A stretch of 62,460 nt of DNA, the filler included, from an uncultured bacterium (GTDB lineage: Bacteria; JAGOEH01), in NCBI GenBank assembly GCA_964632485.1. It is 10 parts of 10 records of this genome, joined end to end, with 100 filler letters (N's around TTAATTAATTAA, not from the genome) between each part and the next. Parts side by side here need not be neighbours in the genome. Positions count along the whole stretch, not along the records: positions 52,285 to 57,466 come from CAZWDO010000053.1; positions 57,567 to 62,460 come from CAZWDO010000054.1; 8 more parts are not named here. One strand, 5' to 3'. The notes under the pieces were generated by a model. It had not been told where the DNA came from, did not search any database, and was given only the letters and a program-made list of their open reading frames with translations. The position numbers and the translations under genes are program-made. Shown here piece by piece: positions 20,728-62,460 of this stretch. Positions within the stretch are counted from its first letter, which is position 1; every line of letters starts with the position of its first letter.

Positions 20728-20751
20728 CTCCCCTTTCCGGCGAAAGGGGAG
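20728..20751 (-). terminator. GC-rich hairpin downstream of the porin gene
   Basis: CTCCCCTTTC-CGGC-GAAAGGGGAG perfect 10-bp stem. Confidence 0.6.
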
Positions 20752-20781
20752 ACTTGTCTTGACGAAAACCCGAAATCGGGT

Positions 20782-21426: not shown

Positions 21427-21461
21427 TTCATTTTACCTTGTTAAAGATGTTGACATGTGAC

Positions 21462-22940: not shown

Positions 22941-23000
22941 AACCGGAATTGACTGAACCTGACCGGAATTGACCGGAATTGACTGCACGTGATTGAACCT
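22941..23000. repeat. Six degenerate 10-bp tandem units (GACCGGAATT/GACTGAACCT)
   Basis: aaccggaatt gactgaacct gaccggaatt gaccggaatt gactgcacgt gattgaacct. Confidence 0.85.
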
Positions 23001-23887: not shown

Positions 23888-24216
23888 TTACAATTTTAAT
23901 TGTTGTATATCCTCCGTCGCCAATACCTGACGCGCGAGCGCTTCTATCTTCTCCACCTGCCGGATACGCTTCAATTTCAACATCGTTTCCGAAGGAACCT
24001 CCCCGTAACGCGCCTTCATCATACTGATCAATACATCCCGGGCGCCTTCCAACTTACCCTTTATTTCTCCTTCCAACTTACCTTCCAATTTCCCCTCCAA
24101 TTTCCCCTCCAATTTCCCCTCCAACTTACCCTCCTTCAATCCCTGCTCGTATTTCTCCTGTAAAATGATCTCGTCAAAACTTGTTAAATATGTCATGGGT
24201 TCTTCTCCTTCCTCGC
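23888..24216 (-). CDS. C-terminal part of an Rpn-family / DUF4351-like protein with EGKL repeats; 5' partial
   Basis: MTYLTSFDE...EGKLEGKLEGKLEG...RYGEVP; 12-bp DNA repeats; frame open to the contig end. Confidence 0.8.
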
Positions 24217-48495: not shown

Positions 48496-48591
48496 CGGTT
48501 AATTCCTTGGTTATGGATCAGCGCGAATATATGTGTTACTCAATCAATCTCATTAAAATATAATCAGATAAATTCTGTTTGTCAATTGAAA
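46951..48591. repeat. 1641-bp direct repeat copy 1 (copy 2 at 50513-52153)
   Basis: Identical translations and identical DNA wherever compared; offset 3562. Confidence 0.95.
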
Positions 48592-48774
48592 TCTGTTTAC
48601 CAACTATTATAATCGAATTTCCCAAATTTGCAAGTCAATATTCAAGGAAATCGAGCTTTGTTTCCTATAACTTTTATCGACATGAAATTCTTTACCAAAT
48701 CTTAACTTGCTTTTATAGAGAGGTGGATTTATTTTAAATCATGTCTGAAAAAGCGGCGCGTCATATCCGCTACC

Positions 48775-50400
48775 ATGAAGAAAGGAAATGAAGTGTTTCA
48801 AAGCATTGGCAACACATTAGCCGGAATAGGACTGTTTTTGACCGGCATTCGCCTGATCACCAACAGTTTTAAAGGCATCACCAATCGCAGGCTGCGCCGG
48901 TTTTTTCTGAAATGGACGCAAAAGGGGCTGGTCAATGCCGCATGGGGAACGCTGATCGGGGCATTGACTCAAAGCAGCTCCAGCGCTACCTTCATCCTCG
49001 CGGGAATGCTTTCCGGCGGGTTGATTACCTTTATCAATGCCGCTATAACCCTGACCTGGGTGGAAATCGGCACGACTCTGCTGGTTTTTTTAGCATCCAT
49101 TAAAATGAAGCTGATCATTATCTACTTGCTGGCCGTGGCTGGTTTCTTTTTCAGTATGGATAAAAAGGGAAAAAATTCAACCCTGGTACACGCTCTTCTC
49201 GGGATCGGCCTGCTGCTTTTCGGCTTCGATCTGCTCAAAAGCGGCGCCATGCAGCTTACTGACACGCTGTGGATACGGCAATTAATCCAACGCGCGCAAT
49301 CTTCGTTTCTGCCTTTGTTTTTTTTAGGTGGCGCATTGCGCCTGACAAGCCAGTCATCTTCAGCCGTCACCATCCTGGTGATGCCATTGACGCTGGCGGG
49401 TATTTTCAACCTGGAGCAAAGTCTGTTGGTCGTTTTTGGCACCGCATTGGGTTCCGGAATATCAACTGCGCTTCTTTCCATGGATATCAGCGGCGCTCCA
49501 CGCAAACTCAGCATTTATAAAATGATCAGCGACCTGAGCGCGAGCGCGGCGCTAATGGGGCTCTTGATCATCGAAAAATTTAGCGGCCTGCCCCTGATCA
49601 AGGCGTTGATCCAGCGAGCCGCGACCCTCCCTGAACTGCAAATCTCCATTGCGTTTCTATTACTCAAGCTCGCGCCGATTGTCTTGCTGTTGCCCAATCT
49701 TGCGTGGATTGAAAAAATAATTGACCGCATAGCGCCCCGAATTGAACACGAAAGCCTTTCCCAACCGGAATATCTAAGCGAAACCGCGCTGGAAAATCCC
49801 GATACCGCCTTCTTCCTAATCGAAAAGGAACAAAACCGAATTATTGACCGGCTCCCCGAATACCCGGGAGAATTACGCGATGAGGCTCGTCTCGCCAATC
49901 CCGATATCATTACTGCCGAAACCTATCATTTAGCTGATCTCAAATTGCTGGAAGAAATTCGACATTACATATCCCAGCTTCACTATCAATCCCTTTCCTA
50001 CCAAGCCTCGGAGCAATTACTGATAATTCAAAACCGGAATTTATTCCTGTCATCGCTGGAGGCAACGGTCAATCAAATCGTTCAAACCTCATTGAATGAA
50101 TCAGTGTCGCCTTCATTGCTTCAATTGCGGGGAAATTTGATTGAATCTTTGCACATGCTCCTCGATTCCATGCGGGAAATATGCAGGAACAGAGACGCCG
50201 AGGAATTGGACATGTTATCGCGATTAACTGATAACCGCAATGGAATCATGGAAAATATTCGAAAAAAATATATATCGTTGGAGACGGAGATGGAAGCGGA
50301 ACACCGGATGTTTCTGCTGATTATGACTGATCTGTTCCAACGGGCGGTGTGGCTGATTCATGAAAACATTTATTTAATCAACATCGAAATCAATTCATAA
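48775..50400 (+). CDS. Na/Pi cotransporter family protein with PhoU-like C-terminus
   Basis: GIGLFLTG, two QSSS motifs, multiple TM helices. Confidence 0.9.
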   Translation: MKKGNEVFQSIGNTLAGIGLFLTGIRLITNSFKGITNRRLRRFFLKWTQKGLVNAAWGTLIGALTQSSSSATFILAGMLSGGLITFINAAITLTWVEIGTTLLVFLASIKMKLIIIYLLAVAGFFFSMDKKGKNSTLVHALLGIGLLLFGFDLLKSGAMQLTDTLWIRQLIQRAQSSFLPLFFLGGALRLTSQSSSAVTILVMPLTLAGIFNLEQSLLVVFGTALGSGISTALLSMDISGAPRKLSIYKMISDLSASAALMGLLIIEKFSGLPLIKALIQRAATLPELQISIAFLLLKLAPIVLLLPNLAWIEKIIDRIAPRIEHESLSQPEYLSETALENPDTAFFLIEKEQNRIIDRLPEYPGELRDEARLANPDIITAETYHLADLKLLEEIRHYISQLHYQSLSYQASEQLLIIQNRNLFLSSLEATVNQIVQTSLNESVSPSLLQLRGNLIESLHMLLDSMREICRNRDAEELDMLSRLTDNRNGIMENIRKKYISLETEMEAEHRMFLLIMTDLFQRAVWLIHENIYLINIEINS

Positions 50401-50476
50401 ACAATGCCGGAGTCGTCACTTATTGAACATCCGCAGATAGGCAACGATTTTCCGACGAAGGCGGTCTCGGCGCTTT

Positions 50477-52057
50477 TCAATTCCCGGACTTTTTAATCGC
50501 CAGCTTCAACTCACTGTGTTTTTCCCAAATGAATTCCGCGATATTCCTCTCCTCGCTGCTGAACAAAATTCCGATCAGATAGATTTCTTTCCCCTCAGAT
50601 CGATATTTTTCGGCATACTTCTGCTCTTTAATTTGTCTGATCGGCGGTTCCGATGAATCGACTTTGAACTCGAATATCATGATCGAGTTGGACGTTTTGA
50701 GCGTAATATCGATTCTGCCGCGGTTAGTGACCTCTTCGGCGATCAGCTCGAACCCGAGAGCGGCGAAAAAGGTGTACATCACGGACGCATAGTATCCCTC
50801 ATAGCGGCTGATCGTGTTTTTAACATAGTTGTTGTAGGGAATCGACGCGAAAAATGAGGTTAATGATTGGTTCAGAGCTTCAAATTCATGTTTGAGTATC
50901 TGGTTTTGTACCATCTGAATTCTGAGCTTGTTTTCATGTCTGGTATCAGTAAGAAAACTTTTAAACAGTGCATTCAAAGAAAGCTGAATTTCCAGGTTGG
51001 GGATGCGCATTTTATAGCTGAGCTCACCGGTGATTTGATTCTCTATTTTTTCTGCGAAAGTCAGATACCCGGTCTGCCAGAGCAGAGCGATCAGATCGAT
51101 GTTCTCCACATCGATTGAATTAAGGGTCTCTTCTCCGACAATGCAATTTTCCAGGTTGGGGATATAATAATCGCCTTCCTTGAGTTTATCGATCAGGAAC
51201 TTGGGGCTGCCGGTCTCCCACCAGTAGTTTCGATATTGATTCTGATTGGAGATGAATAGTAAAATATCAAAAGGATTGTACAACGGCTCCCCAAAGTAAT
51301 TGTAACCGTTGTACCATCGTTTCAGCATATCTACATTGACATCTTGTAAATGTTCCATGAAATGAGCTTCTAAATCATTCTGCGTGTAGCCGGTAATCGC
51401 CGCGTAGTCCGAATTGATCGTAATATCCAACAGATTGTTCAACTGGCTGAACAGGTTGGTCTTGGAGAATTTGCTGACCCCGGTGATCAAGACGAATTTC
51501 AAATATGAATCCAGGTTTTTAATTATCCCGTAGAAATCCCGTAAGCTATCCCGAGCTTTGAGCGCCATTTCCGGGTCGGCGATATTATCTAAAATCGGTT
51601 TGTCGTACTCATCGATCAATATCGCGACCGGTTTTTGAAATTTGCTTGTCAACTCCTTGATCAGCTCATCGAAAAATAGAGGGTTAAAATCAGTATTTTC
51701 GCACTCAACTTCATATTGCCTCATGATTTCGGTCAACCGATAGCGGATATTTTTATCGATCCCAAATTCAGTTTGATAACCGCCACCGCTGAAATCGATT
51801 TTTATGACCGGATATGAGTCCTCCCAATCCCATTTATCCTCAATATAAAGGCCCTTGAACAGTGGCTTGTTCCCGTTGAAAATCTCGTGCAATGTATCGA
51901 TAAACAGACTTTTTCCGAACCGTCGGGGACGGGAGAGGAAGTAATATTTACCCGTGGCGATGAGCTTATGCGCGAACCGGGTTTTATCAATATATACATA
52001 GTTTTCCTCAATGATTTCCCGTAGGTTTTGGATCCCGATCGGCAATTTTTTAAGCAT
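50477..52057 (-). CDS. AAA-ATPase-like + PD-(D/E)XK nuclease protein, copy 2
   Basis: Identical to copy 1 up to WEKHS, with a different tail. Confidence 0.92.
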   Translation of the reverse strand: MLKKLPIGIQNLREIIEENYVYIDKTRFAHKLIATGKYYFLSRPRRFGKSLFIDTLHEIFNGNKPLFKGLYIEDKWDWEDSYPVIKIDFSGGGYQTEFGIDKNIRYRLTEIMRQYEVECENTDFNPLFFDELIKELTSKFQKPVAILIDEYDKPILDNIADPEMALKARDSLRDFYGIIKNLDSYLKFVLITGVSKFSKTNLFSQLNNLLDITINSDYAAITGYTQNDLEAHFMEHLQDVNVDMLKRWYNGYNYFGEPLYNPFDILLFISNQNQYRNYWWETGSPKFLIDKLKEGDYYIPNLENCIVGEETLNSIDVENIDLIALLWQTGYLTFAEKIENQITGELSYKMRIPNLEIQLSLNALFKSFLTDTRHENKLRIQMVQNQILKHEFEALNQSLTSFFASIPYNNYVKNTISRYEGYYASVMYTFFAALGFELIAEEVTNRGRIDITLKTSNSIMIFEFKVDSSEPPIRQIKEQKYAEKYRSEGKEIYLIGILFSSEERNIAEFIWEKHSELKLAIKKSGN

Positions 52058-52153
52058 CGGTTAATTCCTTGGTTATGGATCAGCGCGAATATATGTGTTA
52101 CTCAATCAATCTCATTAAAATATAATCAGATAAATTCTGTTTGTCAATTGAAA
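50513..52153. repeat. 1641-bp direct repeat copy 2
   Basis: See copy 1. Confidence 0.95.
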
Positions 52154-52284
52154 AAGGAAAATTTCAGAAAAAACTACTATCTGCNNNNNNNNNNNNNNNN
52201 NNNNNNNNNNNNNNNNNNNNNNNNNNNNTTAATTAATTAANNNNNNNNNNNNNNNNNNNNNNNNNNNNNNNNNNNNNNNNNNNN

Positions 52285-52391
52285 TGGCTTAAATCAATCT
52301 GTTCGTATAGTTGCGGAAACAGCAACTGCAAAAATTCTGACATATTGGCATCAATCACCGATTTCCACAATTCATCAAACGGTATGCGCAT
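52285..52391 (-). CDS. N-terminus of an Rpn-like protein; 3' partial
   Basis: Manual translation MRIPFDELWKSVIDANMSEFLQLLFPQLYEQIDLS; GAGGAGG RBS; TTGATT-17-TATATT upstream. Confidence 0.7.
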
Positions 52392-52588
52392 ACTCGCCTC
52401 CTCGTTAATCAAAATATAATCCCAATATTTTAAAAATCAAGTCTTTTTTTTATCGCCTGACTGAAATAACCATCCAAATGGCGACTGCATCATCATTTAT
52501 CACATGAATTGATTAACGCCAAACTTCTCCCCCCTTCATTATTTTTCGCGCATCTATACGCAAAATACCCGTTTCGATATTAAATCAA

Positions 52589-52801
52589 TCATCTAATTTC
52601 AAAGTGTTGGGCAGATGTGAAAGTCAAGTGGAAATCCGTGTAGGTCACGCCTTCCCCGACAGTTTTGGTCGCGACCTCCAGCTCATTTTTTTGAAATTTC
52701 AGCGAATGTTCCAGTTACGCATGGCCCATGCCGTGAAACCCGAGCAGCAGCAGCCAGCCGAGCAGGACGGTTCTCAATCCTTTGCCGAGTGTATAAAACA
52801 T
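52589..52801 (-). pseudogene. Secreted protein remnant with a stop right after the signal peptide
   Basis: GAGGAG RBS; MFYTLGKGLRTVLLGWLLLLGFHGMGHA*LEHSLKF... Confidence 0.5.
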
Positions 52802-53013
52802 AATATTCTCCTCATAGCCGTTGGAGGACATGAAGGATGGCTGCGGCCGATGCGGCCCGCGCCGCTCGTCGCTTGACGCAGCATTGCACCGGCGCGCGTA
52901 TCGACAGGACAGTCAGCTTTCAGCCTTCGATCATCGGCATCCTTCCGTCTTACAGAGTTGTCTCGTTTCATGCGGCCAGATTGACCGGCTTGAGCATAGA
53001 ACGAGCTCTATTT

Positions 53014-54221
53014 CTATTTGATGATCATGATCTTCCCGCTGTGAGCATGATGCCGGTTCCATTTTACCTGATAGAGATATATTCCGGTTGAAATGGAATT
53101 TGATAACTTATTGCGGCCATCCCAACGCAATTCGAATTGGCCGGCATCGTTCACTGCCATGGATAACTCTTTTTGGCGCCTGCCGAGCAAATCATAGATC
53201 ACTATTTCCACCATGCCCGGTCGAGACGATGCGCATTGGAAACGGACATCCCCCAGGCAAATAAGTTATTTGTACTGGATGCCCAGCGAGCCAGCCACAA
53301 ATGTGATATCCAGATATCCCAGCCGTCGGGCGATGGTTCCAAATCAATACAGATAGGTATGTATTGAGTGGTGGATTGGACGTTTTGGCTGTTCAGTATA
53401 GTGGATTTTAATTTTCGCGGATGCCCCTTTCCTTCCCGAATTCTGCCAGATGTCTGCGACTCGTTTGCTATCCATGGATCAGGACCGATAAAAACCAATG
53501 TGTCTTCCCAATGATAGCCCGCGGCGATCAAATCATCAACAGTCAGCCAAATGGTGCTGTCTTTCGCTATTAATAGATCAGGCAACACATAACTATCTTC
53601 TAATGCATATTTATTTCCATTCAATATTAATGTATAATACGCACTGTCGAGCGCGATCCGGAGGGCAATCTTTTCGCGATCGCTATCCCGGATATGGACG
53701 AGACATTCAAAGGCATTATCGCTCAGATATGTTCCCTGGCCGATTGTATCGGGAATCATGGAGATATGCGTGTACCAGCCATTATCATTTCCGGCCGAAG
53801 CGCAAATTACGCGCCCCTGTCGGGCCTCAAGCAGATAGCGGAGGGCCCGTTCCTCGGGATTACTTCCCGAGCCGACGGGACCGGTAATCCCCAGCGGCAG
53901 ATTGACGACGCAGGGTTTGCCGAGACTGTCGGCGAGCGTAAACATATAATTCACAGCAATGAATGGCGTGCCTAGCCGTATCGATTTTACTCCGGGATGG
54001 CGAGAAAGCGCTTCCAGTCGATTGGCAGGTTTTATCTGAATCGTGATCAGTTCATGAAGCCGCGTATTGATCGCGCCTCCCAGCGAATAAACATAGTTTA
54101 TTACCTGTTCGATCCTGTCCGTTTCACATTCCACCAGCGCTTTTATTGTAGTGAACGAGTCCGTGGGCGGCACGGACATTCGTTTCTCCGATTTCATCAT
54201 TTGCGATTGTTGTTCAATCAT
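53014..54221 (-). pseudogene. S8 subtilase remnant with internal deletions and an out-of-frame T9SS sorting domain
   Basis: Propeptide-like region joined directly to VNY..PCVVNL.LG..SAGND; no catalytic D/H/GTSM regions; IYDLLGR..WDG..GIYLY lies in another frame. Confidence 0.7.
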
Positions 54222-54275
54222 TGACGCCTGACGTTGCTCCAGTGATATGCCCTGCTTTTTACAGTTTTAAAAAAA

Positions 54276-56579
54276 TTAAAAGTTATAATCCACGGTCACA
54301 TTGACGGTACGCTGCAGCAAATGATTATTCATGGGCAACATGAATTGACTGTTATCATAAACATATTCCCGGGTGGGAATGTTCTGGCGATCGTAAATAT
54401 TCAAAATCTGTAATGATAAAATCAATTGGCGATCATGGGAAAAAGTGAATTCCCGGAGAATGCCGACATCGAGGTTAAAATAAAAAGGCAATTCTCCCCA
54501 ATAAACACGCGAAGTCGAGTAGTATTTATCCGCTTTGTGATAATTCGGGAATCCGCTGCCGACCACAAATTTCAGCGAGGTTTTCCATTCGGGAAAATAT
54601 CTCATCTGGTCCTGGGCGAAAATCGTCAGGGTATGAGTTTGCGCCGTAGGACGCGGGATATAACCCTTGCCGTCCCCTTTTACATTCTCCCGGGAAATCA
54701 AATAACTGTAGGTGATCCATGAATAGAGATTAGCCACCAGATTGCCGCCCATGTAGCAATCCAGGCCGCAGCCATAACCCCGCGCGTCATTCCGGCCGCT
54801 GTAAACCAGTTGCAGATCGTCTATGTAGTAGGAAATCAGATGATATAAATCCTTGTAGTAAGCCTCGATCTTAAAGATGCGACGGGTCTTGTCGAGATGT
54901 TTGATTCCCGCCACATATTCGACCGATCTCTGCGATTTTAAGCGGCGCAGGTTGTCGAAAGCGAACGGCAAGCCCGCCTGCTTGTATTCCGGCGGCTGGG
55001 CGATCAGGCCGATGCCCGCGTAGGTGGCGGTTACCGGAGTCCATTGATAATGCAGTTTTACCCGGGGCATTACCAGCATTTCATCATTTACGCCAGAGTG
55101 ACAGGCGCGGATTCCGGCTTTAAACCAGCTAATCGGGCTGATATTCCAGCGGTAACTCGCGAAAGCCGCCGCTTTATGCCAGTCATAGCCTTTTCGTTCA
55201 TCCAGTTCATGGATCGTCTCTGAAAGTCCCTCATGCGTTATCGTTTTGAACTCGGCAAGGGTATCCCTGACCAGGAGCCATTCCCACTCGATCCCGACAT
55301 GGACGCGGTTGTCCGCCTCGAATTGAAGTTTGTAATTGTACAGATCCGCTTGATAATCATCATAAAGATATTCATAGGAATACATCAGAGTATCGTTATC
55401 ATGTTTCCAAATACCATAGTCAAATTGATAATATTCCTTGAATACAGCGGTTTTTATTTGGTTTTTATTACACTCAATCTGTCGATTGAAGGCGGTGAAT
55501 TGACGGACAAAAATATTTTCACCCAGTTTCAAGCTCGTCTTGAGGGCATAGAGATACGTGTTGAAATCGGCACGTTCCTGACCCATATAATCAAAATAAT
55601 AAGCTTGACACATTTTAGGTTTCAATCTTTTATACGAAGGCAATAGATCAAATTGCTTAACATTTTGAATCGTCAAACCCTGGAAAGTGAGTCGGGAATT
55701 TAAATGCCAGGTAAACGCGACCTGCGCGTCATAGAAACGCGGCGAATAATCGCCCTTCAGATCATGAGTCCGATAAAACCAGGAAAGTCCCGCATACCTC
55801 ATCCCCACGACCACTTGCAGCGTGGGAGTCAGTTGAGTATTGAAAGCCAGATTGAAATCAAGCAGACTGGCATGGATATCCAGTGAAAAGCGTTCACTAT
55901 TCTCCTGGAAATATTCCACCTCGTTGACCGAGGAAAGTTTGTCGTTATGATAAACTTCCAGTCCGCCGGTATAGAGCAGATAATCCTTGAGCATGGATGG
56001 ATTGGCCAGACCGACATTTTCATGCATGGCCTTGCGGATCGTAACGGGATGGAAAACCTCGATACCATTTATGTAAAACAGGTTTTCGTCGAAATTGCCG
56101 CCATGGACATTATAGCGGTTGCTCATTTCGTTATTGGAAGTGACGCCGGGCAGGATTTTGATTGTCTGGTAGATGGAGTTGAACATGAAGGGCATACGAT
56201 TTTGAATTTTCTTCTCAATCACGTAGTTGAACGGCTGGACCGACGCATTGACCTGGGCGATCACGGAGACTGTATCGAGAGAAATTGAGCGGGTGGATAA
56301 TAGTATTGTCATGGAAGTTGCCTTAACTTCGAGTATCGTATCCTGATATGCAATGTGGGATACGCGGAGTTTTGTATTCATTGGTATTTTTTCCAGGACA
56401 AAATTACCCGCGCTGTCCGTGGTAGTCCCCTTTAACTTATAAAGTGATAAAATATTGACCCGCGCGATAGGTTCGCCGCTGGACTGATCCCGGATCACCC
56501 CGGTAACTGTGCGGGCCAATAAGATCGTGGAAAATAAAAATATTATTATGATTACTTGCAGTTTACTTTGCATAAACAC
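54276..56579 (-). CDS. TonB-dependent receptor-like protein with N-terminal carboxypeptidase-regulatory-like domain (module A)
   Basis: VTGVIRD, ILPGVTSNNEMS.RYNVHGGNFDENLFYINGIEV plug region; terminal DYNF. Confidence 0.9.
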   Translation of the reverse strand: MFMQSKLQVIIIIFLFSTILLARTVTGVIRDQSSGEPIARVNILSLYKLKGTTTDSAGNFVLEKIPMNTKLRVSHIAYQDTILEVKATSMTILLSTRSISLDTVSVIAQVNASVQPFNYVIEKKIQNRMPFMFNSIYQTIKILPGVTSNNEMSNRYNVHGGNFDENLFYINGIEVFHPVTIRKAMHENVGLANPSMLKDYLLYTGGLEVYHNDKLSSVNEVEYFQENSERFSLDIHASLLDFNLAFNTQLTPTLQVVVGMRYAGLSWFYRTHDLKGDYSPRFYDAQVAFTWHLNSRLTFQGLTIQNVKQFDLLPSYKRLKPKMCQAYYFDYMGQERADFNTYLYALKTSLKLGENIFVRQFTAFNRQIECNKNQIKTAVFKEYYQFDYGIWKHDNDTLMYSYEYLYDDYQADLYNYKLQFEADNRVHVGIEWEWLLVRDTLAEFKTITHEGLSETIHELDERKGYDWHKAAAFASYRWNISPISWFKAGIRACHSGVNDEMLVMPRVKLHYQWTPVTATYAGIGLIAQPPEYKQAGLPFAFDNLRRLKSQRSVEYVAGIKHLDKTRRIFKIEAYYKDLYHLISYYIDDLQLVYSGRNDARGYGCGLDCYMGGNLVANLYSWITYSYLISRENVKGDGKGYIPRPTAQTHTLTIFAQDQMRYFPEWKTSLKFVVGSGFPNYHKADKYYSTSRVYWGELPFYFNLDVGILREFTFSHDRQLILSLQILNIYDRQNIPTREYVYDNSQFMLPMNNHLLQRTVNVTVDYNF

Positions 56580-56677
56580 CTTTATACGGGATTTATTTTG
56601 TTTGAATACTTAACAAAGTCAAACGAACAATCAAAGATACAATGATAGAAGATTGTATTCATAACTTAATGCCGGAA

Positions 56678-57103
56678 TCATTTAATTAACTTTGAACTAT
56701 CTTCAATCACTATAGTGATATTGCTAATTGACATATAATCTTCATAATCCTTGATTCGTAAAAGAATAGTATAGATGCCTGGATTATTATAAATATGTTT
56801 TACTTTGATAAAATTATTTTGAATTTGGTTAAAATTCGTCGAATCCCATTCAAATGTTGTATCAACAATATCAAGGCTTAACGATTTTATACCATTATAG
56901 GTTATGAATCCACCCAAAAATTCTATTTCCTGTCCAACAAACAAGGTATCATTATGTTGAGGATTGAATATATAGGTTCTAGGATATGAAACAAGAAATG
57001 TAATTTGTTTGTCGCATGTTTCTTTGCTGCAATAAAAGAATATTAAGATAGCAGGAATTAATAAATACAATCCAAAGTGTATTGTTTTAAGTAATTTTAG
57101 CAT
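56678..57103 (-). CDS. PKD/Ig-like lipoprotein (module A)
   Basis: GAAAGGA RBS; FFYC-SK lipobox-like site; KHIYNNPGIYTI PKD motif. Confidence 0.75.
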   Translation of the reverse strand: MLKLLKTIHFGLYLLIPAILIFFYCSKETCDKQITFLVSYPRTYIFNPQHNDTLFVGQEIEFLGGFITYNGIKSLSLDIVDTTFEWDSTNFNQIQNNFIKVKHIYNNPGIYTILLRIKDYEDYMSISNITIVIEDSSKLIK

Positions 57104-57129
57104 TGTTATTTCCTTTCTGTAATGTAAAA

Positions 57130-57165
57130 GACAGCATAATCTTGACGATTTAAGTTTATGCTGTC
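57130..57165 (-). promoter_or_regulatory. Intergenic stem-loop, module A
   Basis: GACAGCATAA...TTATGCTGTC. Confidence 0.7.
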
Positions 57166-57189
57166 CGCTATTCAAAGTAGTTTTAATAG

Positions 57190-57466
57190 TTAATTAATAA
57201 CTGTAAGATCATTCGTAAGCGCTTTTTTAATTTCAAAATATTCCATGTGTCCATTTTTTAAATATAATAAACCATAATCAACTCTAATAACATATAACCC
57301 ACTTGGTATAAGCGCTCCACTTGGATATCTACAATTCCACATTTCAAATTCAAAAACTTCATTAATCAGTTCGGGGAATTTATGAACAATAGTTTCTTTA
57401 ACTAATTGACTATTAACCCAACTTTCGTATTTTAGAAAAAATAGGATTGAATAGCAATTACTTACC
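57190..57466 (-). CDS. C-terminus of a FlgD-Ig-like protein (module A), 5' partial; absent from the ORF track
   Basis: Manual translation ...QLVKETIVHKFPELINEVFEFEMWNCRYPSGALIPSGLYVIRVDYG...LTVIN*. Confidence 0.65.
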
Positions 57467-57590
57467 NNNNNNNNNNNNNNNNNNNNNNNNNNNNNNNNNN
57501 NNNNNNNNNNTTAATTAATTAANNNNNNNNNNNNNNNNNNNNNNNNNNNNNNNNNNNNNNNNNNNNACTAAAAACATAAAGGATAGAAAG

Positions 57591-58364
57591 ATGAAGACGA
57601 TGATATATACTCTGATGATCGTGTTATGGGCTGGATTCAGCATGATTCAGGCGGCGCCTCCCGGAGGCGGCTACAACGGCTGGGGCCAACTATCCGCGGT
57701 TGTGATCGTTAAAGATTGCGATAACGATCCAATAGTTGGAATTCCGGTAACATTCCATGCCGAGATAAACGGAACAATCGATGGCAGTACGGTTCTATTG
57801 ACAGGCTATACCAATGACGATGGCTTTGTGATCTTTTCACAAACACTCAATTACTGGGGATGGGAAGAAGATCATTATATTCGAACAACAATTAACGATG
57901 AAGTCTTTACAATGTTAGCTGAGAATACTGAAAGCTCAACATCTTACAGTATTCAAGCTAAACATTGGGTAGTAAATACAAGTGTCAAAATTAAATGGGA
58001 TCAGACTCCATGGCCAAATCCTGTAACTTTATATGGACCTAAAGATATTTATGGAAGGTTCGAAGTATCACATTTGAGTGATTGGATGGTCGCGAGAGGA
58101 ACATGGAGATTCATTATCGTAAATGACCTAGGGCAACTTATCCGGACATCTTGGGTAAATTCAGGTACCATTTGCAATGGTATTTTCACTCTCAAAGTAT
58201 GGGATGGCTTGGATAGCAATGGTAATGTGCCGCCAAATGGTGTCTATCTAGTTTGCCCATCTTTAGGTTATTCGTATGACCCTGGATTTAATTGGGGCGA
58301 ACTTCCTCGGAACGGTGGATTTGCTACTCAGTATGAACAAGTAACAATATTTAGAGGTAGATAA
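57591..58364 (+). CDS. Secreted protein with Ig-like N-domain and FlgD-Ig-like C-domain (module B)
   Basis: Signal peptide; GQLIRT...WDGLDSNGNVPPNGVYLV. Confidence 0.8.
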   Translation: MKTMIYTLMIVLWAGFSMIQAAPPGGGYNGWGQLSAVVIVKDCDNDPIVGIPVTFHAEINGTIDGSTVLLTGYTNDDGFVIFSQTLNYWGWEEDHYIRTTINDEVFTMLAENTESSTSYSIQAKHWVVNTSVKIKWDQTPWPNPVTLYGPKDIYGRFEVSHLSDWMVARGTWRFIIVNDLGQLIRTSWVNSGTICNGIFTLKVWDGLDSNGNVPPNGVYLVCPSLGYSYDPGFNWGELPRNGGFATQYEQVTIFRGR

Positions 58365-58377
58365 GTAAGCTATGAAA

Positions 58378-58419
58378 GCTGCCGTTCATTCATCAATAGA
58401 ATGTTGAATGAACGGTGGC
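58378..58419 (+). promoter_or_regulatory. Intergenic stem-loop, module B
   Basis: GCTGCCGTTCATTCA...TGAATGAACGGTGGC with no T tail. Confidence 0.7.
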
Positions 58420-58434
58420 GGAAAGGAAACAAAC

Positions 58435-58854
58435 ATGTTTGTACAGCGAAAACGACGAATATTCATTGTCACTTTAATAATTTTTTATGGATCGTTTTGC
58501 TTTTATTGCAGCAAAGATGAGGATCAGGAAACAACTTTGATATTGCCGGGGTGCCATATTTTTCAACCTGCTAATAACGATACGGTTCAAGTCGGCGAAG
58601 CCGTGGATTTTTATTGCGGCTATACGATAGGGAGTTTTCCAATCACAGAAATCATATTGAACTTCGGCGATTCCACGGCAAGCTGGGATAGCGCCGCCAT
58701 TTCGCAATTTGATCCCCGAAATCCAATTATTAAACTAAAGCACGTGTATCAGGATACTGGCGCCTATATGATCCAACTTTATCTTTATGATAGGCGAAAT
58801 GGAGCGATGGCAGCCTCTACCGTCGTTGTCAGGAATTCGGCAAATTATGATTAG
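58435..58854 (+). CDS. PKD/Ig-like lipoprotein (module B)
   Basis: GAAAGGA RBS; FYC-SK; IFQPANNDT; NFGD; KHVYQDTGAY. Confidence 0.78.
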   Translation: MFVQRKRRIFIVTLIIFYGSFCFYCSKDEDQETTLILPGCHIFQPANNDTVQVGEAVDFYCGYTIGSFPITEIILNFGDSTASWDSAAISQFDPRNPIIKLKHVYQDTGAYMIQLYLYDRRNGAMAASTVVVRNSANYD

Positions 58855-61137
58855 ATTTTTCATTTTTATAGAGGTTTGCTCAATGGCTATTGGCGCCGGG
58901 TTTGCAGCCCTTCACGCGTCGACCATTACCGGCGTGATTCGGGACCTGAACAGCGGGGAAGCGATCGCCCGCGTCAACGTCCTCTCCCTCTANNNNNNNN
59001 NNCCGGGCGGTTCGCGCTCGAGGGAATTCCCCCGAACACCCGCATCCGCATCACCCATATCGCCTACCAGGACACAACCCTGGCGGCGGATGAGGATTTC
59101 ATGGACATCCAATTGATTCCCCGGGCGATTCCCATCGACACGGTCACCGTGATCGCCCGCGTGACTACCGCTCCCCAGCCGTTCCATTACGTCATCGAAC
59201 GCCAGATCCAAAACCGCATGCCCTTCATGTTCAACTCCATCTACCAGGCGCTCAAAATTCTGCCCGGCGTCACCTCCAACAATGAAATGAGCAACCGCTA
59301 CAATGTCCATGGCGGCAACTTCGATGAAAACCTCTTTTACATCAACGGCATCGAGGTTTTCCATCCCGTTACGGTCCGCAAGGCCATGCACGAAAACGTC
59401 GGTTTGGCCAACTCCTTCATGCTCGAGGATTATCTGCTCTATACCGGCGGCCTGGATGTCCATCACAACGACAAACTATCGTCGGTCAACGAAGTGGAAT
59501 ATTTCGACGAACATACGGAACGGATCACCCTGGACGTTCATGCCAGCCTGCTCGATTTCAATCTGGCCTGCAATGCGCCGCTATCGTCCAATCTGCAATT
59601 GCTGGCGGGACTCCGCTATGCGGGATTGTCCTATTTCTACCGCACGCATGATCTGAAAGGCAACTACTCGCCGCGCTTATACGACGCGCAGGCGCTGCTC
59701 ACCTGGAACCCACTCCCCGCTTTCACCCTGCAGGGTTTGGTGATCCAAAACCTGAAACAGTTTGACCTACTACCCACTTATAAACGGCTCAGGCCGCGAC
59801 CCGGCAGGGGTTACTATTTTGATTATGAAGGCAGGGATCAGGCGGATTTCAATACCAGTCTTTATTCCGTCAAGGCGAGTTGGAAACCGCGCGAAAATCT
59901 GATCGTCCGTCAATTCGCCGCTTTCAACCTTCAACATGAAGTCAACAAAAGCAACATCGAAACCGCTGTATTCAAGGATCATTATTATTTCGATTATGGG
60001 ATTTGGAAGCAGGACGACGATACGCTGATGTATTCGTATGAAACCCTTTACGATGATTATCGGGCGGACCTTTTCTGCTGGAAGCTTCAAATGGAAATCG
60101 GGAACAGCTTTCATGCCGGGGTTGAAGGGGAATGGTCCGATATTCGCGACACGCTCGCGGAATTCAAAACGATCCGCCACGACAGCCTGTCCGAAACCGT
60201 CAACGAACTGGACGAGCGCAAGGCCTACGATTGGCGTAAGGCCGCGGCCTTCGCGAGCTATCGCTGGCATGTCTCGCCGATCAGTTGGGTACAGGCTGGT
60301 ATCCGCGCCTACCATTGCGGGTTGAACGATGAAATCATGCTGATGCCGCGCATGAAGCTGCATTACCAGTTCAGCCCGGTAAGCTCTTTCTACGCGGGAA
60401 TCGGCCTGATCGCCCAGCCGCCGGAATACAAGCAGGCGGGCTTGCCGTTCGCCTATGACAACCTGCTCCGCTTAAAATCGCAGAGATCGGTCGAATATGT
60501 GGTGGGAATCAAACATCTCGACAATATCCGGCGCATTTTCAAGATCGAAGTCTATTATAAGGACTTGCATGACCTGATTTCGTACTATATCGACGATCTG
60601 CAACTGGTCTACAGCGGCCGCAACGATTCGCGAGGCTATGCCTGCGGCCTCGACGCCTATATGGGCGGCAATCTGGTGGCCAATCTCTATTCCTGGATCA
60701 CTTACAGCTTTCTGCTCTCCGAAGAGAACATCGAGGGGGACGGCAAGGGTTATATCCCGCGTCCTACGGCGCAAACTCATACCCTGACGTTTTTCGCCCA
60801 GGACCAGATGAGATATTTTCCCGAATGGAAAACCTCGCTGAAATTTGTAATCGGCAGCGGATTTCCTGATTATCATAGAGAAGACAAGTATTTTACGTTT
60901 TCGCGCGTCTATCGCGGCAGGCTGCCTTTCTATTTCAACCTGGATGTGGGCATTTCCCGCGAATTCAATTTCGCCCACGACCGGCAACTGGTCGTTTCGC
61001 TGCAAATTCTCAATATTTATGACCGACAGAATATTCCGACGCGGGAATATGTCTATGACAATTCGCAATTCCCGCTGCCCATGAACAACCATCTCCTGCA
61101 GCGAACGGCCAATCTGACGATTGACTACAATTTTTAA
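58847..61137 (+). CDS. TonB-dependent receptor-like protein (module B), split by an N gap
   Basis: Close paralog of 54276-56579; the N-terminus ITGVIRD..IARVNVLSL precedes the gap. Confidence 0.9.
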
Positions 61138-61291
61138 ATGCGCGGGGAGTCGGTTTTGACCAAGAGCTCGTGTCCTCTCCCGCGCCCATTACCTCCTTGC
61201 GGAGTTCTGCCGCTGGGTTTAGATTCATTTTTCGATCCTGTCAGGTTAAGCTATTGACAAAAAAACACCCAATTACCAAAAGGATAGTTAA

Positions 61292-61984
61292 ATGAAACGC
61301 TATTTGTTATTGATCCTGATGATGATCTTCAGCCTGCTGTTTTTTTGCAGCGATAAAGATTCTCAATCTTCATTGGTCGATGATACCAACAATTCAAGTG
61401 TAATGGAAAAAAAAGGCAAGAAAATTGAAATCACGACAAATGATTATGTTGTGATAGAAGAATTGAAGAACAAAAAAGACAAAAAACCAATGGAAAAAGC
61501 CAAACTGATTGAATTGGAATTGAAGTATTTCAGCATGGCCATGGCGTTGCTGGTTACGGAGGAAGATGTTTGCTCCCTGTTGAAAAACAATATCGCCAAG
61601 CAATTTGACGGGGATTATGATGTATTGTGGGGTACTTTAAAAGATGTGAAGCTCAATCGCGGTCAGTTTAAGAAAATGCTGGAGGCATGTTTTGATGAAT
61701 CGGCGAAAAAGTTGCTGAAAGCGGAGGATTTTGATGCGATTAAACTTCTCAATCTTGCAATACCCGTACAATTTGAGAACTGGGATGGCATATCACCATT
61801 GCTGGTTACGTATTGTCCGATAACGATCAATGATATTGATGTACAAACTCTGGAAGCTTTTGACGCTGAATTGAACGTTACGATACTCGATGCGCAAAAG
61901 GAACCCGATTTTCCGGTATTAGTGATCGGTATGAATGAGCGTGTCGATGAGAATATGATATGCCCCCCGAAAATTGGAAGTTGA
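61292..61984 (+). pseudogene. DUF3103-like lipoprotein truncated by an IS3 end
   Basis: FFC lipobox-like site; paralog of 21462-22631; similarity stops after NERVD at the IS end. Confidence 0.7.
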
Positions 61985-62073
61985 AAAGTGTGAGAAAAAG
62001 TGTTATAATAGGAAGAAGAACCTGAAAGGAGCAGATCATGAAATCATCCCGATTTTCGGTTGAGCAGGTCACG
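61956..62073 (+). mobile_element. IS3-family (IS407-like) left end with orfA start, truncated
   Basis: TGATATGCCCCCCGAAAATTGGA terminus; AAAGGAG RBS and MKSSRFSVEQV at 62038. Confidence 0.8.
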
Positions 62074-62123
62074 CCCAACATAATCGGACGTTTCGCTTCA
62101 ATGAAATACGGAAACCTAAATTT

Positions 62124-62408
62124 TTGATGTTAATCCTATCACGAAATAATTGCGTCAAATGCATCCGACATTTTGAGGAGAAACTGGCCAGCCAACTGGA
62201 GACGTATCCTGACTTGAAACTATACGTCATCGCCGGGGAATTGAATGTCGGTACTATTGGCCGTTTGATGAAAAAGTATGAATTTGATTATCAGGATATG
62301 TTGATCAATCGCGATTTTAATTTTATCCGGCGGACGGCGATGGATCGATTACCGGCTTTGTTATTGATTGACAGGGAATTGAACAAAATGAACTATTTTA
62401 AATTGTAA
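62124..62408 (+). pseudogene. Thioredoxin-fold (CxxC) protein, 5'-truncated fragment
   Basis: CVKC and PALLLID motifs. Confidence 0.5.
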
Positions 62409-62460
62409 CGGATATTCCAAGCGCATTGAATCGATAATCCATTGGGATTATGAAAGTTAG

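Follow-up and report, generated by a model that had tools for sequence, protein, structure and literature searches.

The window analysed here, a 62,460-nt stretch of DNA from the assembly of an uncultured bacterium (GCA_964632485.1), is a chain of short contigs (~5 kb; GC 0.37–0.51) whose joints read N44 + TTAATTAATTAA + N44. Two of these contigs, A (52285–57466) and B (57567–62460), share one gene order: gene 1, encoding a secreted Ig-like protein; a hairpin; the motif GAAAGGAAA; gene 2, encoding a putative PKD-like lipoprotein of ~140 aa; and gene 3, with CarboxypepD_reg, plug and barrel domains. This order, described in an earlier note on the same DNA, was recovered on both contigs, including the hairpin and the RBS motif. 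Both contigs belong to a draft assembly and are putatively parts of one genome. The features are as follows.

54276–56579, minus strand: A3, barrel protein of 767 aa (765 from the ATG at 56573), with signal peptide, CarboxypepD_reg-like N-terminal domain, plug and barrel
56678–57103, minus strand: A2, putative lipoprotein of 141 aa (...IFFY-C-SKE...), with a single PKD/Ig-like domain
57109–57117, minus strand: GAAAGGAAA, Shine–Dalgarno-like, 5 nt 5′ of the A2 ATG
57129–57166, minus strand: hairpin A, between A1 and A2; outer stem of 11 pairs and inner 3-pair stem, then UCUUUUACAUU
57190–57466, minus strand: A1, 3′ part of gene 1 (last 91 codons and stop), with a C-terminal FlgD-Ig/T9SS-CTD-like domain
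57591–58364, plus strand: B1, complete gene 1 of 257 aa, with a Sec signal peptide (..MIQA/APPGGG) and two domains
58378–58419, plus strand: hairpin B, between B1 and B2; 15-pair stem, core an 11-bp perfect repeat at 58382–58415
58421–58429, plus strand: GAAAGGAAA, Shine–Dalgarno-like, 5 nt 5′ of the B2 ATG
58435–58854, plus strand: B2, putative lipoprotein of 139 aa (...CFY-C-SKDEDQE...), with a single PKD/Ig-like domain
58847–61137, plus strand: B3, barrel protein whose start overlaps the B2 stop (ATGATTAG); Plug at 19 bits, under the 23.9 cut-off

A1 is clipped by the end of contig A, leaving 91 known C-terminal residues, and contig B begins 24 nt 5′ of the B1 start codon; both copies lack the DNA 5′ of gene 1 and with it the module's upstream border. 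At the other end, DNA similarity between A and B stops exactly at both barrel stop codons. The flanks are unrelated, with a split T9SS cargo 3′ of module A and a DUF3103 lipoprotein 3′ of module B. Among the module proteins, CarbopepD_reg_2 is the only domain to pass its Pfam cut-off, every other domain label being sub-threshold.

In A3, CarbopepD_reg_2 scores 46.4 bits (cut-off 32.2) and Plug 14.6 bits (under its cut-off of 23.9); the protein carries the TonB-box-like motif DTVSVIA, which reads DTV(S/T)VIA across the gene 3 copies, and ends in Phe. B3 contains a scaffold gap of 10 N (58993–59002), where the frame changes and ~11 codons are replaced (A3 residues 47–57); the gap is an assembly artefact, and a reading of B3 as a broken gene was rejected. 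The two barrels align without gaps at 534/710 identities (75%), as expected of the close paralogs proposed earlier, and the N-terminal piece of B3 is 74% identical over 27 aa; the plug is the most conserved region (93–100%). A search with A3 returned 532 relatives at E ≤ 1e-3, and among the 120 listed, most of those other than the window's own two copies have PF07715 and/or PF00593 as precomputed domains. The barrel profile also reaches the N-terminal domains of XusA, RagA and SusC in the PDB. A tree places A3 and B3 as sisters (SH-aLRT 100), with locus L001 of Candidatus Delongbacteria as the next branch (100); the residue make-up of the B sequence (winB_barrel) differs from the rest of the alignment. 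TIGR04056 matched over its first 86 profile positions only (45 bits vs. a cut-off of 368) and Pfam and NCBIfam domain scans found no SusD-type neighbour, in agreement with the earlier statement that this is not a SusC/SusD layout.

The gene 2 products had been thought to share only scattered motifs. They are in fact clear homologs, with 41/118 identities (35%, E 3e-20). Sub-threshold Pfam matches were obtained for A2 (PKD_4, E 0.001, 19.5 bits against a cut-off of 27; PKD, E 0.037) and for B2 (PKD, E 0.002; PKD_4, E 0.0045). An A2/B2 profile matches the PKD-like domains of the ColH collagenase (E 8.7e-4), and the Atlas places B2 nearest to PKD clusters (0.93, 183 shared features). These three weak, concordant lines hint at a PKD fold. 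The AF2 model of A2 is all-beta (pLDDT 53.6), the Atlas's own B2 model (pLDDT 0.70) matches Ig-like Big_7 domains at TM ~0.6, and A2 shows a motif-level match (E 0.068) to a PKD protein adjoining the barrel of locus L055. A non-canonical Tyr occupies position −1, ahead of the Cys, and Cys-Ser-(K/D) is common to all four real candidate lipoproteins of the window. The mature N-terminus of B2, C-S-K-D-E, matches C-X-K-(D/E)2-X, defined as a surface-export signal in Capnocytophaga (PMC5080379). Among 5.8 billion proteins, the only relatives of gene 2 were A2, B2 and P0141, a 99% variant of A2.

B1 comprises an N-terminal beta-sandwich (~22–125) and a C-terminal FlgD-Ig/T9SS-CTD-like domain (~155–257), with Pfam matches below cut-off to Big_1 (E 0.0031) and FlgD_ig (E 0.02); A1 had no match in Pfam or NCBIfam at E ≤ 0.1. 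The two share 12/50 residues (24%, E 2e-4, B1 residues 181–229), a comparison confined to the C-terminal domain since A1 is clipped. An exhaustive search of 1.84 billion representatives with B1 gave 16 matches at E ≤ 1e-3, B1 itself among them, and its N-domain is common to P0126–P0129. In the Atlas, B1 lies nearest to clusters of small proteins with CarboxypepD_reg + FlgD_ig + Por_Secre_tail (score 0.90, 164 features), and its AF2 model has a pLDDT of 46.5 overall and 62–81 at residues 31–100. TIGR04183 matched neither A1 nor B1, and the CTDs found in the window, when aligned to both with hhalign, reached only E ~0.01 at a probability of 3–4%. Elsewhere in the window, Por_Secre_tail is above cut-off in three large ORFs and CHU_C in one, and a CTD fragment lies at 53017–53214; besides gene 1, at least five ORFs carry T9SS-type sorting domains. 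The domain labelled FlgD-Ig in the earlier note is most likely a T9SS-type sorting or Ig-like domain of a kind common in this genome.

Strong stem-loops between genes 1 and 2 were confirmed in both modules. The 89-nt intergenic RNA containing hairpin A folds at −17.4 kcal/mol (z −4.2) and hairpin B at −25.1 kcal/mol (z −6.0), with 0 of 200 shuffles as stable in either case. Hairpin A was not called by a simple terminator scan, hairpin B has no U-tract 3′ of it, and Rfam holds no family for either. Hairpin B is one of three perfect hairpins (stem ≥ 10 bp, loop 3–12 nt) in the window; other long window hairpins also lie 3′ of gene ends, one of them, like hairpin B, without a U-tract. GAAAGGAAA occurs six times in the window vs. 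1.2 expected, and two of the six precede the start codons of A2 and B2 by 5–6 nt, so that the RBS motif noted earlier stands in both modules.

The contrast in GC drawn in the earlier note is accurate for the barrels, whose GC3 is higher (A3 0.545, B3 0.68) than that of A1 (0.17), A2 (0.23), B1 (0.36) and B2 (0.41). However, the low GC3 of genes 1 and 2 is not special, as other signal-peptide and lipoprotein genes of the window are AT-rich too, and window genes span 0.24–0.70 even inside single contigs. Copy B is GC-richer than copy A in all three genes.

Identity between the copies falls from 75% for the barrel to 35% for the lipoprotein and ~24% for gene 1. The corresponding dN values are 0.16 for the barrel and 0.59–0.65 for the lipoprotein, so the proposed non-uniform divergence holds at the protein level. 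Synonymous sites are saturated everywhere measurable, i.e., in the lipoprotein gene, the N-terminal domain of gene 3 and some segments of the barrel. Where residues are identical, codon identity is 0.455 vs. 0.495 expected in the lipoprotein (z −0.6, n = 44 sites, some identical by chance), 0.35 vs. 0.34 at barrel residues 20–46 (n = 20), and 0.588 vs. 0.413 over the barrel (z 8.3, n = 515). Along the barrel, synonymous identity is a mosaic, ranging from 0.10 to 0.94 in 40-codon windows (212 runs vs. 250, block variance 0.037 vs. 0.009; each 0/5000 permutations), and A3 and B3 share exact DNA runs of 58, 54 and 53 nt. Two tracts stand out.

54549–54677, minus strand (A3 residues 635–677), and 60736–60864, plus strand: near-identical tract 1, exact runs of 54 and 58 nt
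54909–55028, minus strand (A3 residues 518–557), and 60385–60504, plus strand: near-identical tract 2, exact run of 53 nt

Tract 1 reaches 97% nucleotide and 95% third-position identity (window 638–677) and holds the longest run of identical synonymous codons, 34 (residues 635–671) vs. 10.6 expected (0/5000 permutations). Tract 2 is at 92% and 90%, respectively, and its flanks (438–497, 698–757), with amino acid identity of 78–93%, have a synonymous codon identity of 0.28–0.44, at or under the codon-usage expectation of 0.41. Gene conversion between the copies is the best reading of the tracts, although read correction or assembly could in principle inflate them. The barrel's extra similarity is best read as purifying selection plus these short tracts. 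Because silent sites in some segments of the barrel gene are as saturated as those of the lipoprotein gene, the whole unit looks like one old duplication, and against this saturated background genes 1 and 2 owe their low identity to the weaker constraint that acts on small exposed proteins. The exchangeable partners of the earlier note are therefore not needed, one old block duplication sufficing without cassette exchange. What is new here indicates a background divergence that is old and uniform, with gene-conversion-like tracts in the barrel.

The neighbourhoods of barrel relatives were compared at 80 loci (25–39% identity; 10 of them with <1.3 kb upstream). Relatives of gene 1 or gene 2 were found by tblastn at 0/80 loci, and a comparable upstream gene pair at 0/80. 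Upstream of the nearest relative, L001 (39%), lie a Usp gene and, in divergent orientation, an ORF recognised only by eye as a UvrD-type helicase. Another Por_Secre_tail protein is the upstream neighbour at three loci (L010, L031, L034) and a T9SS_plug_1st protein adjoins the barrel at one (L057), most loci having housekeeping neighbours and no cargo-like one. Thus, the consistent upstream lipoprotein and FlgD-Ig genes expected beside homologous receptors are absent from these loci, the outcome that the earlier note had named as counting against its proposal. As the 80 relatives are distant, this shows that the barrel family as such does not come with the trio; that the trio is functionless does not follow. 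Its co-occurrence rests on two copies, both from one duplication. Genes 1 and 2 are near-orphans, and since a housekeeping gene of the same bin is as orphan-like, the lineage is simply unsampled.

We favour, at a probability of roughly 55%, a lineage-specific lipoprotein-assisted TonB-dependent uptake operon that was block-duplicated long ago with a T9SS-type cargo gene attached. Gene 3 would encode a TonB-dependent-type transporter, as suggested by its CarboxypepD_reg N-domain, TonB-box-like motif, plug, barrel and terminal Phe. Gene 2 would provide a very small one-PKD/Ig-domain lipoprotein, whose Cys-Ser-Lys-acidic start suggests surface export; by analogy, it may serve the barrel at the surface in ligand capture or as an accessory partner. 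Gene 1 would yield a two-domain beta-sandwich protein that is exported by Sec and lacks a catalytic domain; the FlgD-Ig-like domain at its C-terminus is probably either a sorting domain for type IX secretion or an Ig domain of the cell surface. The hairpin, which parts gene 1 from genes 2 and 3, is most likely a transcription terminator or attenuator or protects the gene 1 message, and would set gene 1 expression at a level unlike that of genes 2 and 3. The contact between lipoprotein and barrel, the surface exposure, the dependence of gene 1 on the T9SS and the role of the hairpin are proposals.

A plain old duplication of neighbours, in which genes 2 and 3 may be one operon and gene 1 is an unrelated, co-copied T9SS-type cargo with its own terminator, is possible, if doubtful. 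The uniformly saturated synonymous background is what one old block duplication should leave, and the hairpin, directly 3′ of the gene 1 stop, could be the terminator of an independent gene, U-tract-less hairpins following other window genes as well. The high base rate of T9SS-type sorting domains means that gene 1 may be a bystander, a gene-1-like neighbour is kept at 0/80 loci, and the three loci with another Por_Secre_tail neighbour show that such adjacency arises readily. However, gene 1, a strong hairpin at the matching position and an identical RBS motif were retained past silent-site saturation, whereas everything beyond the barrel stop differs, and strong hairpins are rare by the scan used (three perfect ones in 62 kb); with two copies only, this retention is weak evidence. 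It is rather improbable that A and B are homologous loci of two related populations binned together, with a mosaic from inter-population recombination. Inter-strain recombination would also yield mosaic identity, and the short contigs of varied GC, the GC-richer copy B and its atypical barrel composition fit such a mixture, but the flanks differ from the first base past the stops, and orthologous loci at 75% protein identity usually keep some synteny. The GC3 spread is equally large within single contigs, the bin has other multi-copy genes on one contig (46945–48495 and 50480–52057), and a further window contig encodes a paralog of the contig B DUF3103 lipoprotein, with a Cys-Ser-Lys start like that of contig B's protein.

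The earlier proposal of a dedicated display, export or uptake unit survives in its uptake part, the plug and TonB-box-like motif being importer features; export or display is without support, and a dedicated system is not backed by the 80 loci. It is very improbable that the trio is a device for export or surface display, with the barrel as translocator or anchor of the gene 1 protein and the cognate lipoprotein as its helper. Gene 1 is secreted, lacks an enzyme domain and adjoins its would-be partners' genes in both copies, and the barrel subfamily is uncharacterised, with the one T9SS_plug_1st neighbour among its relatives. Yet the conservation of the plug together with the TonB-box-like motif points to energised import, most related barrels have housekeeping genes as neighbours, none of the other T9SS-type cargos in the window adjoins a barrel of this kind, and no computed result backs a protein–protein contact.

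The uptake operon favoured here has counterparts among known systems. XusAB is an established non-SusCD lipoprotein-assisted TonB-dependent transporter and, like gene 3, XusA has an N-terminal carboxypeptidase-like domain (bioRxiv 10.1101/2024.04.15.589501). BtuBG is another, with accessory PKD-bearing lipoproteins (PMC13616437). In contrast to SusD, BtuG and XusB, the mature gene 2 lipoprotein (~115 aa) is far too small for a lid role. The trio looks like one lineage's own version of the lipoprotein-assisted uptake systems already known, rather than a new type of machine.

The unit that the earlier note had described as present twice, with the same gene order on two contigs, is real. In both copies the order is a gene for a secreted Ig-like protein (gene 1), a hairpin, the motif GAAAGGAAA, a gene for a small, putative PKD-like lipoprotein (gene 2) and a gene for a TonB-dependent-type barrel (gene 3), at the following positions.

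52285-57466, contig A
54276-56579, minus strand, A3, barrel of copy A, about 100 nt after A2
56678-57103, minus strand, A2, lipoprotein of copy A
57190-57466, minus strand, A1, secreted Ig-like protein of copy A
57567-62460, contig B, 4,894 bases in the protein database
57591-58364, plus strand, B1, secreted Ig-like protein of copy B
58435-58854, plus strand, B2, lipoprotein of copy B
58847-61137, plus strand, B3, barrel of copy B, its start overlapping the B2 stop

Contigs A and B are the last two of the window, in which short contigs are joined by 44 N, TTAATTAATTAA and a further 44 N. A1 ends at the contig border, with 91 residues known, and B1 starts 24 nt inside contig B, so the upstream limit of the module lies outside the sequenced DNA in both copies. 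What looks like a frameshift in B3 is a 10-N scaffold gap inside contig B (58993-59002), standing for about 11 codons (A3 residues 47-57). A shared repeat as the cause of the contig break at gene 1 was considered and rejected, since the ends of contigs A and B have no 17-mer in common with any other window contig. Other contig ends (11520, 18237, 24317, 30094, 35876, 52184) do share 17-mers with other window contigs, e.g., the start of 18237-24216 with 46942-52184, which suggests neighbouring nodes of a single assembly graph, separated where repeats occur.

The strong stem-loops of unrelated sequence that had been noticed between genes 1 and 2 were recovered on folding, with −17.4 kcal/mol for hairpin A (z −4.2) and −25.1 kcal/mol for hairpin B (z −6.0), no shuffle of 200 being as stable in either case, and the two sequences are indeed unrelated to each other. 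The ribosome-binding motif reported ahead of gene 2 was likewise found in both copies: GAAAGGAAA occurs six times in the window against 1.2 expected, and two of these lie just ahead of A2 and B2. A scan of the whole window for perfect stems of at least 10 bp with loops of 3-12 nt gave three hairpins, including hairpin B; the 10-bp perfect arms of hairpin A are 19 nt apart and hence outside these limits. Rfam gave no match at gathering scores in the whole window, and two matches at chance level (E 0.077 and 0.62) in 56500-58950.

The two barrels align without gaps, with 534 of 710 residues identical (75%). The sole domain call above a curated cut-off is CarbopepD_reg_2 at the N-terminus of A3 (46.4 bits); Plug (PF07715) scores 14.6 bits in A3 and 19 bits in B3 against a cut-off of 23.9, and PF00593, present in many relatives, matches neither. 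Relatives with E ≤ 1e-3 number 532, with E values as low as 9e-90. Among the 120 listed, Plug and/or TonB_dep_Rec calls were precomputed for most entries beyond the two from the window (PF07715 in most), the names are TonB-dependent receptor or carboxypeptidase-like regulatory domain protein, and named relatives come, among the matches listed, from Calditrichia, Ignavibacteria and Flavobacteriaceae. Across an alignment of 33 sequences the plug block LPGVTSNNE...YNV(H/R)GGNFDENL does not vary. Ahead of the plug, after the N-terminal domain, lies DTVSVIA (A3) or DTVTVIA (B3), aligned with the xxEVxV block of the family, which by its likeness we take to be the TonB box. Both proteins end in ...DYNF, i.e., with a terminal aromatic residue (Phe). 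The best PDB match of the barrel profile is XusA (9gbc_A, E 5.5e-16), through the N-terminal domain only; RagA and SusC fragments are also matched, mainly through that domain, and the sole match in the barrel region, to the siderophore receptor 5fr8_A (E 5e-4), is weak. Structure 9gbc appears in the XusAB paper (bioRxiv 10.1101/2024.04.15.589501). The SusC/RagA model TIGR04056 reaches 45 bits against a cut-off of 368.25, over profile positions 1-86 alone, and no SusD-type Pfam family was found in any ORF of contigs A or B, in agreement with the earlier view that this is not a SusC/SusD layout. A complex prediction of A3 (108-767, 33 rows) with A2 (25-141, 2 rows) scored 0.00 in both runs, which gives no verdict on binding.

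A2 and B2 are 35% identical (41/118, E 3e-20). The gene 2 product has 139-141 aa and a hydrophobic leader ending ...FY-C-SK(E/D), in which the residue at −1 to Cys is the non-canonical Tyr in both copies. Cys-Ser-(K/D) is common to all four real candidate lipoproteins of the window, a fifth candidate being an out-of-frame artefact within barrel B. Putative lipoproteins of the DUF3103 family with the same Cys-Ser-(K/D) start are found on two contigs, at 61292-61981 (plus strand) and 21465-22631 (minus strand), one of them directly downstream of barrel B, past a GC-rich hairpin (about 61141-61174) without a U-tract. In Capnocytophaga, the optimal surface-export signal is given in the available text as C-X-K-(D/E)2-X (PMC5080379). 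B2 (C-S-K-D-E) fits this signal and A2 (C-S-K-E-T) partly does, the signal being that of Bacteroidota and perhaps not one used by this lineage.

A PKD fold for gene 2 is supported by three weak, concordant lines: sub-threshold Pfam scores in both proteins (PF00801 and PF18911 tested; PKD_4 in A2 at 19.5 bits against 27, PKD in B2 at 18.5 bits against 23.5), a match of the A2/B2 profile to the collagenase ColH in its PKD-like domains (E 8.7e-4), and PKD clusters as the neighbours in the Atlas (0.93, with 183 features in common). The shared lipoprotein motifs WDS and KH.Y..G.Y, the second of which had been singled out earlier, presumably are the signature of the PKD fold, not ligand residues. 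Among 5.8 billion proteins, the relatives found were A2, B2 and a 99% variant of A2. The AF2 model of the lipoprotein (pLDDT 53.6) is too poor for use. At about 115 aa and with a single PKD-like domain, the lipoprotein is much too small to form a lid in the manner of SusD, BtuG or XusB, which makes a role in ligand capture, or as an accessory, more likely.

A1 and B1 share 12 of 50 residues (24%, E 2e-4). In B1 (257 aa) a Sec signal peptide is followed by a beta-sandwich at the N-terminus (about 22-125) and an FlgD-Ig-like domain at the C-terminus. Among 1.84 billion representatives, searched exhaustively, 16 matched at E ≤ 1e-3, B1 itself included; the N-domain also occurs in four otherwise different secreted proteins (P0126-P0129), and the C-domain as repeats in very large proteins. 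The proteins headed by this N-domain are a small modular family. In B1 the domain opens with PPGGGYNGW directly after the signal peptide, and P0126-P0129 share a further segment that B1 does not have (..DLDQNG.HD.WE.PLAEKFCP.L.LHSQDQGV.P.PVEIMDRNGD..). The product of gene 1 is not identified as FlgD: FlgD_ig scores 15.3 bits against 27 and PRK12812 14.2 bits against 258, the Ig-like part alone scoring, and weakly, and contigs A and B hold no flagellar gene context. The AF2 model of B1 (pLDDT 46.5), likewise set aside as evidence, has no PDB match at E ≤ 0.001 in Foldseek, where generic beta-sandwiches were returned with FlgD (3c12) at rank 19.

The gene 1 product is likely, as a prediction, a cargo of type IX secretion (T9SS), to which language-model and structure neighbours alone point. 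The Atlas neighbours of B1 are small CarboxypepD_reg + FlgD_ig + Por_Secre_tail proteins (0.90, 164 features), with Por_Secre_tail in 65-98% of their members. Neither A1 nor B1 matched the TIGR04183 or PF18962 models of the C-terminal sorting domain (CTD) at E ≤ 0.1; hhalign of the window's own CTDs against A1/B1 gave E 0.011-0.013 (probability 3-4%). T9SS cargos are frequent in the window: above cut-off, three other large ORFs carry Por_Secre_tail and one carries CHU_C, and both FlgD_ig and T9SS models pick up a CTD fragment at 53017-53214.

The region next downstream of barrel A (53017-54221, minus strand), after a 54-nt spacer with no hairpin, holds a 339-aa ORF with no Pfam family and a faint subtilase-like stretch (..VVNLPLG..SAGNDNGW..). 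It overlaps a 66-aa T9SS/FlgD_ig CTD ORF by 13 nt in a different frame, and the two look like a single T9SS cargo gene broken by a frameshift, whether genuine or introduced in assembly. Fib_succ_major (Fibrobacter succinogenes major paralogous domain) proteins are encoded at 6267-11108 (minus), 24906-25586 (plus) and 31598-33391 (minus), one of them with 1614 aa and BACON_2, fn3 and Ig-like domains and one with Por_Secre_tail. Together with CheB-CheR-PAS at 13107-16016 and an MCP at 16208-17311, this gene content suggests an FCB-type bacterium that is motile or chemotactic and has type IX secretion.

The unequal divergence of the three genes, from which an exchange of partner cassettes had been read, holds at the protein level (dN 0.16 for the barrel, 0.59-0.65 for the lipoprotein); cassette exchange does not follow, as an old block duplication suffices. 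The dS of the barrel is 0.86-1.36 and that of the lipoprotein is saturated. At identical residues, codon identity in the barrel is 0.588 against 0.413 expected (z 8.3, n = 515), compared with 0.455 against 0.495 in the lipoprotein gene (n = 44) and 0.35 against 0.34 in barrel residues 20-46 (n = 20). Along the barrel, synonymous identity is uneven, ranging from 0.10 to 0.94 in 40-codon windows: residues 518-557 and 638-677 have 92% and 97% DNA identity, with exact DNA runs of 53, 54 and 58 nt in the near-identical tracts, and in residues 438-497 and 698-757, where 78-93% of the amino acids are conserved, synonymous identity is at or below expectation. This clustering is significant: the longest run of identical codons (34 vs. 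10.6 expected), the number of runs (212 vs. 250) and the block variance (0.037 vs. 0.009) were each reached in none of 5000 permutations. DNA similarity extends to the two stop codons and no further, the flanks being unrelated. The simplest history consistent with these sequences would be one old block duplication, with silent sites saturated throughout, then strong purifying selection on the barrel and a looser constraint on the two small exposed proteins, with short tracts of gene conversion arising later within the barrel gene.

GC3 is 0.17-0.41 in genes 1 and 2 and 0.545 and 0.68 in the barrels. The low values were rejected as the mark of a foreign cassette, being unspecific: GC3 of the window genes spans 0.24-0.70, and other secreted or lipoprotein genes are AT-rich as well. 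The lowest among the long ORFs surveyed (≥150 aa) is 0.24, in a secreted protein of the PF00144 Beta-lactamase family (26047-27141, plus strand), an example of AT-rich secreted-protein genes being general in this bin.

Relatives of the barrel (25-39% identity) were compared at the best 80 of at least 600 matched stretches, with one genome per species; at ten of the 80 loci the upstream DNA is shorter than 1.3 kb. In tblastn of A1, A2, B1 and B2 against the 80 loci no match had E < 0.01, and the four below E 1 are at chance level, one being A2 with a PKD protein downstream of the barrel of L055. A comparable upstream gene pair was found at none of the 80 loci, with a crude pattern as the lipoprotein flag, and Pfam on their 98 immediate same-strand neighbours gave no constant partner. 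Upstream neighbours included rpe (9), small CarbopepD_reg_2 proteins (12), Peptidase_M23 (7), L28 (2) and Por_Secre_tail (3), and downstream ones DUF5074/NHL (4), OstA_2 (4), LpoB (3) and a PKD protein (1), among others. The earlier note had expected consistent upstream partners beside homologous receptors, as befits a dedicated system; at the sampled depth, none of the 80 loci carries them, which refutes that expectation at this depth, so the comparison does not back a dedicated system. The trio was also not found described, among the matches listed, in the literature on TonB-dependent transporters, lipoproteins, PKD, FlgD, T9SS and Delongbacteria.

Other neighbours recur at these loci. At 12 of the 80 (L013, L015, L019, L029, L043, L047, L054, L055, L056, L059, L061, L078; Bacteroidia and Flavobacteriales MAGs) the ORF directly upstream of the barrel homolog encodes a conserved protein (about 210-243 aa) with a signal peptide, CarbopepD_reg_2 and a conserved C-terminal region (..PWPTKEQFRQAFL..NLLNP.AWAKFIKAWKNGDFK), making a recurrent and apparently unstudied gene pair. 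These proteins were rejected as distant gene 1 counterparts, with an hhalign probability of 0.5% and a C-terminal half that is a different conserved region with no FlgD-Ig-like domain. L006, the sole locus with a small lipoprotein (137 aa) directly upstream, was discarded too, this protein being unrelated to A2/B2 beyond the signal peptide. At four Bacteroidales-type loci (L011, L014, L027, L032) a putative DUF5074/NHL-repeat lipoprotein of about 357-363 aa lies directly downstream of the barrel homolog, as a different candidate partner for the same barrel family.

The nearest relative among the 80 loci is L001 (Candidatus Delongbacteria, 39%), with a Usp gene and a divergent UvrD-type helicase ORF (recognised by eye) upstream. 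A quick tree joins A3 with B3 (support 100) and places L001 on the next branch (100); the duplication is thus specific to the lineage of the window bacterium, and among sampled lineages the tree indicates Candidatus Delongbacteria as the nearest. The Na/Pi cotransporter of the bin has its best relative at 37% identity (Desulfonatronovibrio). With a lineage this sparsely sampled, the orphan status of genes 1 and 2 says little; the lesson is that it reflects an unsampled lineage, in which a Na/Pi transporter also has no relative above 37%. A Na/Pi cotransporter gene is flanked on one contig by two full copies, identical in their first 25 residues, of an AAA-ATPase_like + PDDEXK_9 gene (46945-48495 and 50480-52057, both minus), a multi-copy family in the bin with a third, partial copy at the start of another contig (30195-31184, minus).

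By analogy with XusAB and with BtuBG and its accessory lipoproteins, the lipoprotein would be surface-exposed and assist the barrel; the gene 1 protein may be exported, possibly by T9SS, and would act outside the cell because it has no catalytic domain, and the hairpin may uncouple gene 1 expression from that of genes 2 and 3. In its fullest form, to which we give a probability of roughly 15%, the trio would be a new lipoprotein-assisted TonB-dependent uptake unit, in which a mini PKD lipoprotein and an Ig-like protein delivered by T9SS, both small, exposed and freely diversifying, set ligand specificity, and recurrent gene conversion keeps the energised barrel interchangeable between the paralogous units. 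This would be a modular "constant engine, variable front end" design under concerted evolution, in an uncultured, deep-branching lineage close to Candidatus Delongbacteria. Gene 1 may instead be a bystander with its own terminator, a reading that is possible if doubtful. Hairpins without a U-tract also lie 3′ of other genes (20728-20751, and after B3), which makes a terminator role for the module hairpins plausible. It is improbable that contigs A and B come from two populations in one bin, their unrelated flanks and shared lineage-typical features standing against this. Least credible is an export or display device, which the earlier note had entertained as a dedicated unit; the importer hallmarks of the barrel conflict with it, and we regard it as highly improbable.

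If the lipoprotein and the gene 1 protein do serve the barrel, the uptake unit would bring a minimal single-PKD-domain partner and a secreted third component to the growing list of lipoprotein-assisted TonB-dependent transporters, and an example from outside Bacteroidota, the source of all studied cases. The barrel itself bears what appears to be an interesting signature of concerted evolution: near-identical tracts in paralogs saturated at silent sites would be a clean small case, in the membrane-embedded component only. The finding stands as one duplicated operon in one draft genome.

Several known systems resemble parts of this unit. SusC/SusD (RagA/RagB) receptors have a CarboxypepD_reg-type N-terminal extension, a TonB box, a plug and a barrel, and a partner lipoprotein with the Bacteroidota-type surface-export motif, an arrangement that is predicted for the window unit too; however, the window barrel is shorter (about 770 aa, against about 1000), a SusD-family protein is absent, and the gene order is reversed. 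In XusA-XusB (xenosiderophores) and BtuB-BtuG with BtuH/BtuK (cobamides), a barrel stands beside a non-SusD-like surface lipoprotein, as predicted here. In the available texts, XusA likewise has an N-terminal carboxypeptidase-like domain (bioRxiv 10.1101/2024.04.15.589501), and accessory cobamide lipoproteins use PKD/Ig-like domains as spacers (PMC13616437). In contrast to these systems, A2/B2 are unrelated in sequence to BtuG and to XusB (a DUF4374 propeller), the gene for the lipoprotein precedes that for the barrel, its product of one ~115-aa PKD-like domain is too small as a barrel cap, a gene for a secreted Ig-like protein is attached, and the barrel body is only remotely similar to solved structures (5fr8_A, E 5e-4). 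T9SS type A cargos (TIGR04183/PF18962) end, as gene 1 does, in an Ig-like domain with W.G....G..v.sGvY, and the bona fide CTDs of the window and of L010 also score with FlgD_ig; the last strand, however, is preceded in B1 by a 26-residue insertion and followed in A1 by a 10-residue tail, and domains of the gene 1 type are also internal repeats in large surface proteins (P0135, P0125), the listed example having no sorting tail. The bipartite receptors TbpB-TbpA and HpuA-HpuB of Neisseria and HmuY-HmuR of Porphyromonas have no detectable homology to the trio, for which haem, iron or host-protein ligands are not indicated. Yet there too a lipoprotein gene is followed by that of a TonB-dependent barrel, a variable exposed lipoprotein is combined with a conserved barrel, and HmuY is a small all-beta lipoprotein, as is predicted for the gene 2 product. 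Judged from its sequences, the unit fits best as a variant, specific to its lineage, of TonB-dependent uptake assisted by a lipoprotein.
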